Virus record (IMG/VR): IMGVR_UViG_2706794669_000008
From: a virus
Lineage: Duplodnaviria; Heunggongvirae; Uroviricota; Caudoviricetes
Length of the DNA stretch: 4,821 nucleotides
Strand: one strand, 5' to 3'
The notes beneath the pieces were generated by a model. The model saw only the letters and a list, made by a program, of their open reading frames with translations, made no database searches and had not been told where the DNA came from. Of this stretch, positions 1 to 4,821 are shown in pieces. The translations under genes were made by a program, and so were the position numbers. Within the stretch, counting starts at the first letter, position 1, and each line of letters starts with the position of its first letter.

Positions 1-83
1 AGGGACAGCTGATAGAAACAGAAGCCACTGGAGCACCTCAAAAACACCATCATACACTAAATCAGTAAGTTGGCAGCATCACC
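1..83 (-). mobile_element. IS1 terminal fragment (IRL end; element body lies left of the window)
   Basis: Positions 1..83 are the exact reverse complement of the first 83 nt of IS1 as I recall it (GGTGATGCTGCCAACTTACTGAT... at 61..83 reversed). The 23-bp terminal inverted repeat ends at 83 and the sequence becomes AT-rich, non-IS DNA from 84. Confidence 0.9.
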
Positions 84-190
84 GAAGTGGTAAAGAAGAT
101 AATAAAGAATAATATTTAGGGTTATAGGTCTTAGCCCATTTTAAATGGAAGGCAGACATGCAGCCATGCATACTTCGCATGGCAACATAA

Positions 191-532
191 TTATTTAGAC
201 AAACTATCTAATTTTTGCGTCGCTTTTTGTGTTAGGTCGCTGTAACTGATAAACCCTACGTTAGNNNNNNNNNNNNNNNNNNNNNNNNNNNNNNNNNNNN
301 NNNNNNNNNNNNNNNNNNNNNNNNNNNNNNNNNNNNNNNNNNNNNNNNNNNNNNNNNNNNNNNNNNNNNNNNNNNNNNNNNNNNNNNNNNNNNNNNNNNN
401 NNNNNNNNNNNNNNNNNNNNNNNNNNNNNNNNNNNNNNNNNNNNNNNNNNNNNNNNNNNNNNNNNNNNNNNNNNNNNNNNNNNNNNNNNNNNNNNNGCAA
501 ATAATCAGACACCGTTTTTCCATCAGTTTCAA
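191..532 (-). CDS. hypothetical protein, mostly N-masked; boundaries and frame continuity uncertain
   Basis: Readable N-terminus MKLMEKRCLIIC (TTG at 532, first ATG at 523) and C-terminus ...NVGFISYSDLTQKATQKLDSLSK with TAA stop at 191..193. The interior 265..496 is N. Same strand as, and about 60-70 nt downstream of, the 595..972 ORF. No convincing Shine-Dalgarno. Whether the two readable ends belong to one ORF cannot be verified. Confidence 0.3.
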   Translation of the reverse strand: MKLMEKRCLIICXXXXXXXXXXXXXXXXXXXXXXXXXXXXXXXXXXXXXXXXXXXXXXXXXXXXXXXXXXXXXXXXXXXXXXXXXXXXXXNVGFISYSDLTQKATQKLDSLSK

Positions 533-594
533 GAAGAATTACTAGATCTCTTACTTCACCACTGACTTGAGTGCATCCTTAGTAGTAATGTTAA

Positions 595-972
595 TCATTT
601 TTTCCCTCCAAATACGATGCCCTCTACGTCTTTGGAAGCTTTTTGTGATGACCACTCCTCTGAATCAGGTGATTTAATTAAAAATATTGTATCTCCATCA
701 AAAATCGTATTTGTTCCGTAAAAATTCACATTTGATAGATCACCACCAAAAACCCTCTGCCCACTCGAGGTAATTGCCTCACCTAATTTAGTAAAATTAC
801 CAGCAATAGATGATTTTCTTTTTCCACTTCTATTCAAAGTGGCTTTAATTACACCACCACCATCCTTAGAGTTAAATAATTGAATGTCCACTCCAGCAGT
901 TGGTTGTATATATTTTGAAAGCTCTTTCTTGAACTTGTTAATATATTTATCTTTGTTTTCTTTGTTGGTCAT
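595..972 (-). CDS. hypothetical protein, 125 aa, Lys/Gly/Ser-rich, no recognisable domain
   Basis: Uninterrupted 375-nt ORF in roughly 30-35% GC DNA, where stop codons are frequent, so a chance ORF is unlikely. Single ATG at 972, TGA stop at 595..597. No signal peptide or hydrophobic segment, no Cys or His. Weak ribosome-binding site. Confidence 0.55.
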   Translation of the reverse strand: MTNKENKDKYINKFKKELSKYIQPTAGVDIQLFNSKDGGGVIKATLNRSGKRKSSIAGNFTKLGEAITSSGQRVFGGDLSNVNFYGTNTIFDGDTIFLIKSPDSEEWSSQKASKDVEGIVFGGKK

Positions 973-1149: not shown

Positions 1150-1240
1150 ACCACAATCTGAACTCATCACCTTGTCACAGATGCAGAAATGCACCTGCGA
1201 TTTTCTGCATTCTGCGGTTTCCGTTAGGGAGGCCGTATGA
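1145..1240 (+). CDS. ylcH: small ORF (31 aa, MRPQSELITLSQMQKCTCDFLHSAVSVREAV), ylcH-like position immediately upstream of ybcN
   Basis: ATG at 1145 preceded by AAGGGGA with 5-nt spacing. TGA stop at 1238..1240 overlaps the ybcN ATG (ATGA), the same coupling pattern as the downstream genes. Size and position match the DLP12 small gene ylcH; sequence identity is unverified. Confidence 0.4.
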   Translation: MRPQSELITLSQMQKCTCDFLHSAVSVREAV

Positions 1241-1692
1241 CTCTGCCAGTAGACGGCATCAAACTCCATCGCGGTAACTTCGCGGCCATCGGCCAGCAGA
1301 TTCAGCCATTGCTGGATGCCGGGCAATGCTTACGCCTGCAGGTTAAGCCGTGGCGCGAGAAGCGCAGCCTGTCGCAGAACGCGCTCAGCCACATGTGGTA
1401 CACGGAGATCAGCGAATATCTCATCGCCCGCGGCAAGACCTTCGCTACGCCTGAGTGGGTCAAAGACGCGATGAAGCACACCTATCTCGGCTACGAAAGC
1501 AAAGACCGTGTAGATGTCGTGTCCGGCGAGGTCACCACCGTCCAATCCCTCCGCCATACGTCAGAGCTGGAAACCGGCGAGATGTACATCTTCCTGTGCA
1601 AAGTCGAAGCCTGGGCGATGAATATCGGCTGCCACCTGACAATTCCGCAGAGCTGTGAATACCAGCAGCTGCGCGATAAGCAGGAGGCGTAA
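1237..1692 (+). CDS. ybcN: NinB/Orf-family recombination protein (DLP12 YbcN-like), 151 aa
   Basis: Full-length ORF with GGGAGG Shine-Dalgarno 5 nt upstream of the ATG. Protein is near-identical to my recollection of E. coli YbcN and shares the RSLSQN... motif with lambda NinB/Orf. Confidence 0.9.
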   Translation: MTLPVDGIKLHRGNFAAIGQQIQPLLDAGQCLRLQVKPWREKRSLSQNALSHMWYTEISEYLIARGKTFATPEWVKDAMKHTYLGYESKDRVDVVSGEVTTVQSLRHTSELETGEMYIFLCKVEAWAMNIGCHLTIPQSCEYQQLRDKQEA

Positions 1693-1862
1693 TGGCTACA
1701 CCGCTTATTCGTGTCATGAACGGGCACATCTACAGAGTATCAAATCGTCGTAAGCGTAAGCCTGAGCTGAAGCCATCCGAAATACCAACACTGCTCGGAT
1801 ATACCGCTAGCCTGGTTGATAAAAAATGGTTGCGACTGGCAGCAAGGAGGAATCATGGCTGA
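1692..1862 (+). CDS. ninE: NinE-family protein, 56 aa ([56 protein letters not shown])
   Basis: Hand-translated; it falls below the supplied ORF track. ATG overlaps the ybcN stop (TAATG at 1690..1694) and the TGA at 1860..1862 overlaps the ybcO start. Basic small protein at the conserved ninE position. Confidence 0.75.
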   Translation: MATPLIRVMNGHIYRVSNRRKRKPELKPSEIPTLLGYTASLVDKKWLRLAARRNHG

Positions 1863-2145
1863 TTTGAGAAAAGCAGCGCGTGGTCGGGAATGCCAGGTAA
1901 GAATCCCTGGCGTATGTAATGGCAATCCTGAAACGTCAGTACTGGCACATATCCGGCTGGCTGGATTGTGCGGTACCGGTATCAAACCGCCAGACCTGAT
2001 TGCCACCATTGCATGTTCTGCCTGTCACGACGAAATCGACCGCCGCACATATTTTGTCGATGCTGAGTATGCAAAAGAATGCGCGCTGGAAGGTATGGCG
2101 AGAACGCAGGTTATCTGGCTGAAAGAGGGGGTTATTAAGGCGTGA
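1855..2145 (+). CDS. ybcO: YbcO-family protein (DUF1364, putative nuclease; four Cys residues), 96 aa
   Basis: ATG at 1855 with AAGGAGG at 1844..1850. Sequence [23 protein letters not shown]... matches my recollection of DLP12 YbcO. The track ORF starting at 1816 is an upstream in-frame extension without an RBS. Confidence 0.85.
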
Positions 2146-2459
2146 ATACCTACAGCATCACATTACCCTGGCCTCCGAGCAATAACCGCTATTACCGCCA
2201 TAATCGCGGGCGCACACACATCAGCGCAGAAGGGCAGNNNNNNNNNNNNNNNNNNNNNNNNNNNNNNNNNNNNNNNNNNNNNNNNNNNNNNNNNNNNNNN
2301 NNNNNNNNNNNNNNNNNNNNNNNNNNNNNNNNNNNNNNNNNNNNNNNNNNNNNNNNNNNNNNNNNNNNNNNNNNNNNNNNNNNNNNNNNNNNNNNNNNNN
2401 NNNNNNNNNNNNNNNNNNNNNNNNNNNNNNNNACCATCACCGAAATGGGGAATGAATGA
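2142..2459 (+). CDS. rusA: RusA Holliday-junction resolvase (interior masked by N at 2238..2432)
   Basis: N-terminus [32 protein letters not shown] and C-terminus TITEMGNE match RusA. GTG start overlaps the ybcO stop (GTGA). The readable ORF is 105 aa, shorter than the roughly 120 aa I recall, so the masked length may not be the true length. Confidence 0.85.
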
Positions 2460-2596
2460 TGTTTGAGTTTTATATGGCAGAACTTCTTCGCCACCGCTGG
2501 GGGCATCTGCGCTTATATCGTTTCCCCGGTTCTGTTTTGACCGATTACCGAATACTGAAGAATTACGCCAAAACCCTGACAGGAGCAGGAGTATGA
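2456..2596 (+). CDS. ylcG: small protein YlcG-like, 46 aa ([46 protein letters not shown])
   Basis: Hand-translated. ATG at 2456 overlaps the rusA TGA stop (ATGA); own TGA stop at 2594..2596. Conserved position between rusA and Q in DLP12-type prophages. Confidence 0.6.
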   Translation: MMFEFYMAELLRHRWGHLRLYRFPGSVLTDYRILKNYAKTLTGAGV

Positions 2597-2681
2597 AGTC
2601 AGAGATAACAATCAACTAATACTGTTTTGTTGATTTTTGCTTGTAATTGGCGTTCTGGTCTGATTTTTGTGGAGTAAGTTG

Positions 2682-3065
2682 ATGCGTGATATTCAGATGG
2701 TTCTTGAGCGTTGGGGAGCGTGGGCGGCTAATAATCATGAAGATGTGACCTGGTCGTCCATTGCCGCCGGTTTTAAGGGATTAATTACTTCAAAAGTAAA
2801 ATCTCGCCCGCAATGTTGTGACGATGACGCGATGATTATTTGCGGGTGCATGGCCCGTCTGAAAAAGAACAACAGCGATTTGCACGATTTATTAGTAGAT
2901 TATTATGTAGTCGGTATGACATTCATGTCACTGGCAGGTAAGCATTGCTGCTCTGATGGTTATATCGGGAAAAGGTTACAGAAGGCTGAGGGCATAATTG
3001 AAGGGATGTTAATGGCATTAGATATCCGGTTAGAGATGGATATCGTTGTTAATAACTCTAATTAA
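2682..3065 (+). CDS. quuD: late-gene antitermination protein Q (QuuD-like), 127 aa
   Basis: ATG at 2682 with GGAG at 2671..2674. Sequence [22 protein letters not shown]...[18 protein letters not shown]... matches my recollection of DLP12 QuuD, including the Cys-rich motif. The track start at 2667 is a TTG extension. TAA stop at 3063..3065. Confidence 0.85.
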
Positions 3066-3080
3066 TATGCCAATTGTTTA

Positions 3081-3117
3081 CTAAAAATTATTAAAAATGG
3101 GGCGTTGCAACGCCCCC
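3081..3117 (-). terminator. intrinsic terminator for leftward transcripts (nmpC and IpeX)
   Basis: Perfect 18-nt GC-rich palindrome GGGGCGTTGCAACGCCCC at 3099..3116. On the minus strand it is followed by ATTTTTAATAATTTTT (complement of 3081..3098). On the plus strand it is followed by A-rich sequence, so it is unidirectional. Confidence 0.55.
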
Positions 3118-3257
3118 AAAAATAAAGGGTAATATATAACAGAAGGTTTATATAGTTAGAAGCAAGGTTGTGCTCCTAAAGGAAGTGGCTTGAGGGAGCC
3201 ACTTATATGTTGGGGAGGCAAAGCCTCCCGCAACATATCTTTTAGTAATCAAATTAG
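3090..3257 (-). ncRNA. ipeX: candidate IpeX-like sRNA region (3' end / downstream of nmpC)
   Basis: From memory, IpeX is a roughly 167-nt sRNA overlapping the 3' end and downstream region of nmpC in DLP12, on the same strand. Here the distance from the nmpC stop (3254) to the minus-strand terminator U-tract (about 3090) is about 165 nt and the region is highly structured. Ends are not mapped. Confidence 0.4.
3183..3243 (+). terminator. candidate terminator for rightward transcripts (tR'-like), tandem hairpins plus CTTTT
   Basis: Hairpin A: AAGTGGCT / AGCCACTT (3183..3204, loop TGAGGG). Hairpin B: ATATGTTGGGGAGGC-AAA-GCCTCCCGCAACATAT (3205..3238, one bulged G), followed by CTTTT at 3239..3243. 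Sits between Q and the convergent porin gene. Confidence 0.35.
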
Positions 3258-4336
3258 AACTGGTAAACCATACCTACAGCAACGATATCATCGGTAGCAA
3301 CGCCAGATGCTTTCGTGAAATCGCTCTTATCAATCAGGTTGATTTTGTAATCAACAAAAGTGGACATATTTTTGTTGAAGTAATAGGTTGCACCTACATC
3401 AATATATTCAACCAGGTCCTGATCACCCCACGCACCCAAGTCTTTTCCTTTAGATTGCAGGTAAGCAACGGACGGACGCAGACCGAAGTCGAACTGATAT
3501 TGTGCAACTACTTCGAAGTTTTGTGCTTTGTTGGCAATATGGTTATTACCAAAAACAGTCATGTTCTGGGTTTCAGAATAGGTGGTAGCCAGATAGATGT
3601 TGTTCGCATCATATTTCAGACCAGCTGCCCATACTTCAGCATTTTGACCAGATGCATTCAGGCTGTTGTTACCGTAGATAACCTGATTATTAGTGCGGTC
3701 AGATTTAGCATAGGTTGCACCTACACCGAATCCTTCATACTCATAAGTAGTGGAGAAACCGAAACCATCACCATTAGCTTCAGTTACGTCAGTGCGGTCA
3801 TTTTTACCCTGATACTGAGCAGCAAAGTTCAGACCATCAACCAGACCAAAGAAGTCGTTGTTACGATAAGTTGCAACACCAGTGGTGCGACCAGTCATGA
3901 ACACATCTGTTTGAGTCCAAGTGTCACCACCGAATTCTGGCAGGACGTCAGTCCACGCACCGATGTCGTATGCTACACCGTAGTTACGGCCGTAATCGAT
4001 GGAGCCGTAGTCACCGAATTTCAGGCCAGCGAAGGCAAGACGGGTTTTATCTTTGGAGGAACCTTGAGATTCAGCGCGGTTGCCTTTGAATTCATATTCC
4101 CACTGACCGAAACCAGTCAGTTGATCGTTGATTTGGGTTTCACCTTTGAAGCCAAGACGGGCATAAGTAGTATCACCATCATCTGCATCATTAGAGGAGA
4201 AGTAGTGCTTAGCATTAACTTTCCCGTACAGATCCAGCTTGTTACTGTCTTTATTATAAATTTCAGCTGCCTGAGCAGACATCGCCATCAGTACTGATGC
4301 AGCTACAGCAGAAATTGCCACTGTTAATTTTTTCAT
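3254..4336 (-). CDS. nmpC: outer-membrane general porin, NmpC/OmpD family, apparently intact (360 aa precursor)
   Basis: Start chosen at the ATG at 4336 ([23 protein letters not shown] signal peptide, then [16 protein letters not shown]...). The track start at 4396 adds 20 implausible residues. C-terminal ...VAVGMVYQF ends in the Phe typical of porins. Strong similarity along the whole length to my recollection of OmpC, NmpC and OmpD. TAA stop at 3254..3256. Confidence 0.92.
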
Positions 4337-4726
4337 CGTGAGCCCTTTTTTTGAACTATTATTAAAAAATGATGTCATTGCGCGATAAATATTCATCTAA
4401 TCAATGTGATTATTTCAAGATGTAAGTTTTGGTTTCTCGTTTGATTTGTGAAGTAGATCTCTATTTTTATCTGAACTTTTTTCTATCGAATCCTATTCAT
4501 GGCTCTTGACTGAATAAAAATAAATCTATTAGCCAATTTATATTAACGGCTGTTATTTATAAGTGCTCTATAATTTGAAGGTTCAATTTAAACCGGCTAA
4601 AAATAACACTGGAAATTATTTGTTGGTTATTTGTTGGGATTTGCTTATGTATTTGTAGTGGTGTTTTCAATACTCGGTAGCATTCTCGCAAATATCATTT
4701 AGTGGTTTACGTACGTAAAAAATTGG
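4337..4726 (-). promoter_or_regulatory. AT-rich upstream regulatory region of nmpC; promoter not mapped
   Basis: About 390 bp of AT-rich non-coding DNA between the porin start and the IS1 end, the size expected for a porin control region. Contains a perfect tandem repeat (4616..4637) and a 14-bp palindrome (4706..4719). No confident -35/-10 pair identified by eye. Confidence 0.4.
4616..4637. repeat. perfect tandem direct repeat, 2 x 11 bp (TTATTTGTTGG)
   Basis: 4616..4626 and 4627..4637 are identical and adjacent. Confidence 0.8.
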
Positions 4727-4821
4727 GGTAATGACTCCAACTTATTGATAGTGTTTTATGTTCAGATAATGCCCGATGACTTTGTCATGCAGCTCCACCG
4801 ATTTTGAGAACGACAGCGACT
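4727..4821 (-). mobile_element. IS1 terminal fragment (IRR end; element body lies right of the window)
   Basis: GGTAATGACTCCAACTTATTGAT... from 4727 to the window end is the reverse complement of the last roughly 95 nt of IS1 (3' end of insB plus IRR) as I recall it. Same orientation as the left copy. Confidence 0.9.

Follow-up and report, generated by a model that had tools for sequence, protein, structure and literature searches.

The closest described relatives of the gene studied here are nmpC of Escherichia coli, lc of phage PA-2 and ompD of Salmonella enterica. Salmonella ompD is a core chromosomal gene, located outside any prophage. In E. coli K-12, nmpC belongs to the prophage DLP12 and, as the initial annotation of our sequence had stated, is split in its 3' end by an IS5 insertion; we confirmed that the element is IS5B and that it leaves a 3' fragment of 58 nt. 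The K-12 gene is silent because of an insertion element, and nmpC mRNA is a target of RybB in E. coli (PMC3333887). In the REL606 lineage of E. coli B the gene is silenced by an IS1A within the coding sequence (nmpC::IS1A), and excision of the element restores transcription and raises permeability to cefotaxime (bioRxiv 10.64898/2026.08.19.745717). The same porin module is carried by functional temperate phages, namely PA-2, ev243, mEp332 and PhiR34_1 (98.5% identical over the porin module), and phage 434 has it in an IS5-split form.

We analysed a 4,821-nucleotide stretch of DNA, virus record IMGVR_UViG_2706794669_000008, referred to below in its entirety as the window. We consider it highly probable that the window carries an intact and working general-diffusion porin of the NmpC/Lc/OmpD type, at the usual moron position of a decayed, IS-ridden lambdoid prophage. 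As in E. coli B, an IS1 accompanies a gene of this family; here, in contrast, the element lies outside the gene.

A lambdoid prophage remnant between two IS1 ends

The features of the window, in order of position and with the evidence for each, are as follows.

1–83, minus strand: terminal 83 bp of an IS1 (IRL end) in reverse orientation, forming the left prophage boundary (sequence ...ATCAGTAAGTTGGCAGCATCACC)
84–112, plus strand: remnant of a lambda-type replication protein P gene, its last ~30 bp (homology)
191–972, minus strand: two small hypothetical genes of low GC content (35%), a partly N-masked homologue of a 142-aa protein and a 125-aa gene at 595–972 (WP_000608370.1 and WP_000182282.1 in the related locus L003)
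1237–1692, plus strand: ybcN-family gene (Pfam NinB), in the DLP12-type nin/Q block, 1237–3065
1692–1862, plus strand: ninE (Pfam NinE)
1855–2145, plus strand: ybcO (Pfam YbcO)
2142–2459, plus strand: rusA, partly masked (nin/Q block, colinear with DLP12)
2456–2596, plus strand: ylcG (nin/Q block, colinear with DLP12)
2682–3065, plus strand: antiterminator gene quuD (Pfam Phage_antitermQ)
3066–3253, both strands: highly structured Q–porin intergenic region (folding against shuffled sequences, terminator scan)
3254–4336, minus strand: intact porin gene of the NmpC/Lc/OmpD type (open reading frame, Pfam, translation identical to the coding sequence annotated WP_000737275.1)
4337–4726, minus strand: native upstream and regulatory DNA of the porin gene, 390 bp (near-identity to relatives)
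4727–4821, minus strand: first 95 bp of an IS1 (IRR end), 390 bp upstream of the porin ATG (homology break, IS1A-family match)

The nin/Q block is colinear with that of K-12 DLP12 at 86–98.6% identity, and with the prophage of E. coli ETEC1731 at 99.3%. Its gene order, ybcN-ninE-ybcO-rusA-ylcG-quuD followed by the porin gene in reverse, is that of DLP12 and PA-2. The porin site, between the Q antiterminator and the holin and lysozyme genes and on the opposite strand, recurs in the same order in K-12, PA-2 and ETEC1731. The earlier placement of the porin within a prophage remnant was therefore borne out: the synteny is lambdoid and of the DLP12 type, and the prophage is decayed.

To the left of the nin/Q block, positions 83–190 are 100% identical to DNA annotated as 'replication protein P', and the end of the P gene at position 5030 of L003 corresponds to window position 112. 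The two small genes at 191–972 overlap one another (L003 5109–5911) and occupy the interval between P and ybcN where K-12 DLP12 has ybcL/ybcM. Their only matches are phrog_16940 and phrog_18061, PHROGs without an assigned function; neither gene had a match in Pfam, NCBIfam or PADLOC. In the complete genome CP049179.1 (L008; see below), the 142-aa frame is apparently broken, with an open reading frame of 113 aa at most and no gene called there. The window contains two runs of N, at 265–496 in the 142-aa gene and at 2238–2432 in rusA, which are shorter than the true sequence in CP049179.1 (232 versus 252 nt and 195 versus 240 nt respectively). Because of this, the lengths of reading frames that cross them are masking artefacts (rusA appears as 105 aa, not 120 aa).

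Homology to uninterrupted prophages breaks at 83/84 and again at 4726/4727, and the flanking 83 and 95 bases are IS1 ends in the same orientation. The left end had been overlooked in the initial annotation. Thousands of E. coli records contain sequence that matches the right end, 4727–4821, and carries an IS1A-family annotation; the insertion junction reads GTACGTAAAAAATTGG/GGTAATGACTCC. The window is probably a whole short-read contig of a strain resembling Shigella sonnei, broken at two IS1 repeats.

The structure beyond these breaks could be read in CP049179.1, a complete 4.88-Mb genome that we reached by an exact-protein look-up and in which all unmasked bases of the window, the right-hand junction included, recur at 100% identity. 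There, the right IS1 is a full 768-bp copy with an 8-bp target duplication, AAAATTGG, on both sides, and beyond it the prophage resumes with the distal CAP site of the porin gene, the holin gene essD, the lysozyme gene rrrD and Rz. Because of the duplication and the continuing prophage, we conclude that this IS1 is a simple insertion and not the end-point of a deletion. The initial claim that an IS1 sits upstream of the porin gene rather than inside it thus proved accurate. The left IS1 of CP049179.1 is split by another IS (~2.1 kb, IS21-like) and abuts the sucrose genes cscB/cscK (L008 12550–17083); the left arm of the prophage, from the integrase gene to P, has therefore been lost or rearranged away.

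Since the window begins and ends with IS1 termini of one orientation, we considered whether the 4.6-kb segment between them might be a Tn9-like composite transposon that mobilizes the porin gene. This is very improbable. In CP049179.1 the right IS1 has its own 8-bp duplication, with the prophage continuing past it, and the left IS1 is split; the two copies were rejected as a transposing unit on these grounds. The internal segment is, moreover, colinear with ordinary DLP12-like prophages at the usual place, and a search of 5,426 E. coli genomes gave no copy of the junctions on a plasmid or at a second site.

The exact left and right junctions were absent in scans of genome contigs, and a BLAST search with both against 5,426 complete E. 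coli genomes gave no identical junction. The single near-miss was in E. coli MS20675: an IS1 that entered its DLP12 remnant (L006) independently, and with the same orientation, lies 19 bp farther out from the porin gene and falls inside the distal CAP site. Past that IS1 (L006 4080–4211, compared with window 4700–4740) the rest of the prophage is gone and is replaced by ISAs1 and unrelated genes; the porin allele of MS20675 is 94.2% identical to that of the window. Among the loci that we fetched, the exact IS1 junction occurs only in CP049179.1, and most other copies of the same porin are without an upstream IS1.

The porin locus has been hit by IS elements repeatedly: by IS5 in K-12 and phage 434, by IS1A inside nmpC of E. 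coli B, and by IS1 upstream of the gene in the window and in MS20675. These repeated hits may reflect either a preference for AT-rich targets or selection.

The porin and its mosaic allele

The porin reading frame runs from an ATG at 4336 to a stop codon at 3254–3256, giving 360 codons plus the stop and a protein of 360 aa. A mechanical list of open reading frames places the start 20 codons earlier, at an ATG at 4396 (380 aa). We adopted the start at 4336, in line with the annotation of RefSeq relatives and of PA-2 lc; the PA-2 record also marks a signal peptide of 23 aa. The signal peptide of the window porin is of equal length (23 residues, codons 4268–4336) and would leave a mature protein of 337 aa that begins AEIYNK and ends VAVGMVYQF, with phenylalanine as the final residue. 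The computed mass of the precursor is 39.63 kDa.

We looked for a frameshift or internal stop along the whole frame, 3254–4336, and found none. The translation matches the Pfam Porin_1 profile (PF00267) over its full length (profile positions 1–337 of 337) with an E-value of 3.1e-153 and 510.6 bits, against a cut-off of 23.7; because of this full-length match, assignment to the porin family is far beyond chance. The hallmarks of classical general porins are present, namely the signal peptide, the PEFGG motif of loop 3 and the C-terminal aromatic residue. Across 30 homologues there is no variation in PEFGG or in residues K39, R60, R99, D124, E134 and R150; we take these six to be the basic and acidic residues of the constriction, the counterparts of OmpF K16, R42, R82, D113, E117 and R132 respectively.

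When the IS5 is removed in silico, K-12 NmpC is a protein of 365 aa, and the window porin matches it at 329 of 360 aligned residues (91.4%). The same count, 329 of 360 (91.4%), was obtained with PA-2 Lc (J02580, AAA32301.1). OmpD of Salmonella enterica (P0093) is 80–81.5% identical over its full length and scores 630 bits; it belongs to the same porin subfamily, but its external loops are different. The initial annotation had described an uninterrupted NmpC/OmpD-type porin at 3254–4336, from signal peptide to C-terminal Phe, and had proposed alignment to NmpC and OmpD references as a check for frameshifts. The description holds, with a 360-aa frame that matches Porin_1 at full length, and the alignments, at 91.4% and 81.5% identity, revealed no frameshift.

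Scores against other porins support the same placement. The window porin scores ~720 bits with NmpC/Lc-type proteins and ~630 with OmpD, compared with 406–461 for the solved structures of OmpC, PhoE, OmpF and OmpK37. In NCBIfam, its 518 bits exceed the cut-off (484) of the broad 'porin OmpC' subfamily model, and it falls below the cut-offs of the PhoE (506 against 599) and OmpF (484 against 583) equivalogs. RefSeq labels the protein, WP_000737275.1, 'porin OmpC' because the OmpC subfamily model is the only one of the NCBIfam models that it passes; the label is a subfamily name and does not denote the ompC locus.

The porin aligns end to end with solved trimeric chains, from OmpK37 (E 2e-137) through OmpC and PhoE to OmpF, with E-values down the series to 1e-108. 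An AlphaFold2 model has 16 long strands and is of moderate confidence (pLDDT 70.8, pTM 0.69, with loop 3 at pLDDT < 50). The 16-strand trimeric barrel fold is one that we infer mainly from the sequence similarity, above 60%, to trimeric porins of solved structure.

The nucleotide sequence of the gene is a recombinant mosaic. Its first ~440 nt are 99–100% identical to K-12 nmpC, after which identity drops abruptly to 71–87%. The comparison with PA-2 (L004) gives the same pattern as that with K-12 (L002): the 3' two-thirds are diverged, and the allele is 5 aa shorter (360 versus 365). The protein differs from K-12 NmpC at 36 positions, two indels among them; 28 of the 36, including both indels, fall in external loops L3–L8 as predicted from the AlphaFold2 model, with a concentration in L4–L8. 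The abrupt drop in identity along the gene fits a swap of a surface-loop cassette between prophage alleles.

The same differences could be taken to mean that the frame is a cryptic pseudogene, preserved in frame but disabled by substitutions so that it forms no functional pore. Thirty-six changes from K-12 NmpC, with two indels, would be the argument for this reading, and we regard it as almost certainly wrong. The differences are mostly in external loops, the pore-lining and motif residues are invariant, at least 1000 contigs and 17,488 index blocks preserve the exact sequence, and viable phages carry close relatives of it.

Those counts refer to the exact 360-aa protein, WP_000737275.1, and they contradict the rarity of an intact copy that the initial annotation had implied. 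The protein is variously named 'porin OmpC' (RefSeq), 'porin OmpD [Shigella sonnei]' and 'outer membrane porin protein LC'. E. coli B1-56, ETEC1731, CV839-06 and many other strains carry a 100% identical porin in the same prophage context. In approximately 45% of complete E. coli genomes, 80% or more of the 1.6-kb porin region lies in one place, a figure that may include IS-split copies, since the count joins pieces across gaps of up to 1.3 kb. Public assemblies of E. coli and Shigella very commonly contain an intact copy, with the identical protein in thousands of them, and it is the K-12 and E. coli B copies that are interrupted. The allele, its prophage context and even the exact IS1 arrangement are already present in public genomes; this is a known gene in a known setting.

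Flanking DNA and expression of the porin

The spacer between quuD and the porin gene (3066–3253) is unusually structured on both strands, with fold z-scores against shuffled sequences of −8.3 for the minus strand and −6.2 for the plus strand, and with four or five consecutive hairpins. Downstream of the porin gene, a terminator scan picked out a minus-strand hairpin at 3116–3099 with a U-run behind it, an arrangement that resembles a terminator of the porin transcript. The plus strand has hairpins at ~3182–3238 and then CUUUUAG, a candidate terminator of the late operon, possibly tR'-like. The Q-dependent operon presumably has its late promoter and its terminator in this spacer, alongside the porin terminator. 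An Rfam search at E ≤ 0.1 gave no family match anywhere in the window, the spacer included.

On the other side of the gene, the 390 bp between the porin ATG and the IS1 are near-identical to the DNA upstream of K-12 nmpC, PA-2 lc and the ETEC1731 and B1-56 porin genes. The stretch contains a proximal CAP/CRP site at 4444–4464, 109–129 nt before the ATG, as judged by an exact match to the annotation of J02580. The distal CAP site, annotated in PA-2 at 405–425 nt upstream of the ATG, is outside the window and is present just past the IS1 in CP049179.1. The IS1 stops 13 bp short of this site and displaces it by ~776 bp. Upstream of the porin gene, a simple sigma-70 consensus scan returned no promoter and an FNR-box search no match; a CRP-box search recovered the annotated proximal site and nothing else, a yield no higher than chance would give.

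We propose that the porin gene would be transcribed against the late operon, from a promoter region of its own. The precursor would be exported by Sec and cleaved after AQA (residue 23), and the BAM machinery would then insert the protein into the outer membrane by way of its C-terminal Phe signal. There it would form a trimer of 16-strand β-barrels, with loop 3 narrowing the pore, and would provide a minor, non-specific channel and new surface loops beside OmpC and OmpF. Of the two IS1 copies, one cuts off the left arm of the prophage inside gene P; the other, a simple insertion, lies 390 bp before the porin ATG. The second element spares the gene, the proximal CAP site and the 390 bp of native DNA, and moves the distal CAP site and the lysis genes away by ~776 bp.

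Work on related strains bears on whether such a gene is expressed. Shigella flexneri transcribes nmpC, with an anaerobic induction that depends in part on FNR (PMC4229854), and patients seroconvert to the S. flexneri protein (PMC7809897). GMMA vesicles of S. sonnei contain an 'OmpD' of 39.6 kDa at 0.8–2.1% of protein (PMC7806729); the agreement between this value and the 39.63 kDa computed for the window precursor is a match by name and mass only. By analogy with these cases, the window porin is probably a minor but expressed porin.

The gene might instead be intact but transcriptionally quiescent, a silent reserve porin whose AT-rich upstream DNA is silenced, for example by H-NS, or whose needed distal CRP site has been uncoupled by the IS1. 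Several observations point that way: the upstream region has a GC content of 29.7%, a consensus sigma-70 promoter was not detected in it, the IS1, which ends 13 bp before the distal CAP site known from the PA-2 annotation, has moved that site ~776 bp away, and nmpC is often called quiescent or dormant in the literature. We nevertheless think quiescence unlikely. In the studies considered, the dormant state of nmpC in K-12 and E. coli B is put down to an IS inside the gene and not to the promoter, and in the window the proximal CAP site and the 390 bp of upstream DNA are unchanged. In addition, the S. sonnei vesicles contain the 39.6-kDa OmpD (by the match of name and mass), and S. flexneri nmpC is expressed both in vitro and in patients.

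The upstream IS1 could also have rewired control of the porin, either by removing the distal CRP site or by breaking an AT-rich tract silenced by H-NS, with the result that an S. sonnei-like lineage expresses the porin differently from E. coli strains that have this allele. We hold this to be distinctly unlikely. If it were true, the IS1 of MS20675, inserted 19 bp away in the same orientation, could hint at recurrent selection and not just at a preference for AT-rich targets.

For an intact and working porin, as we prefer to read the locus, the consequences hardly go further than correct annotation. Through an intact porin of this kind, a prophage can give its host a minor route of diffusion for nutrients and β-lactams, and the surface loops can act as phage receptors or as antigens; the NmpC of Shigella has been among the antigens considered for vaccines (PMC7809897).
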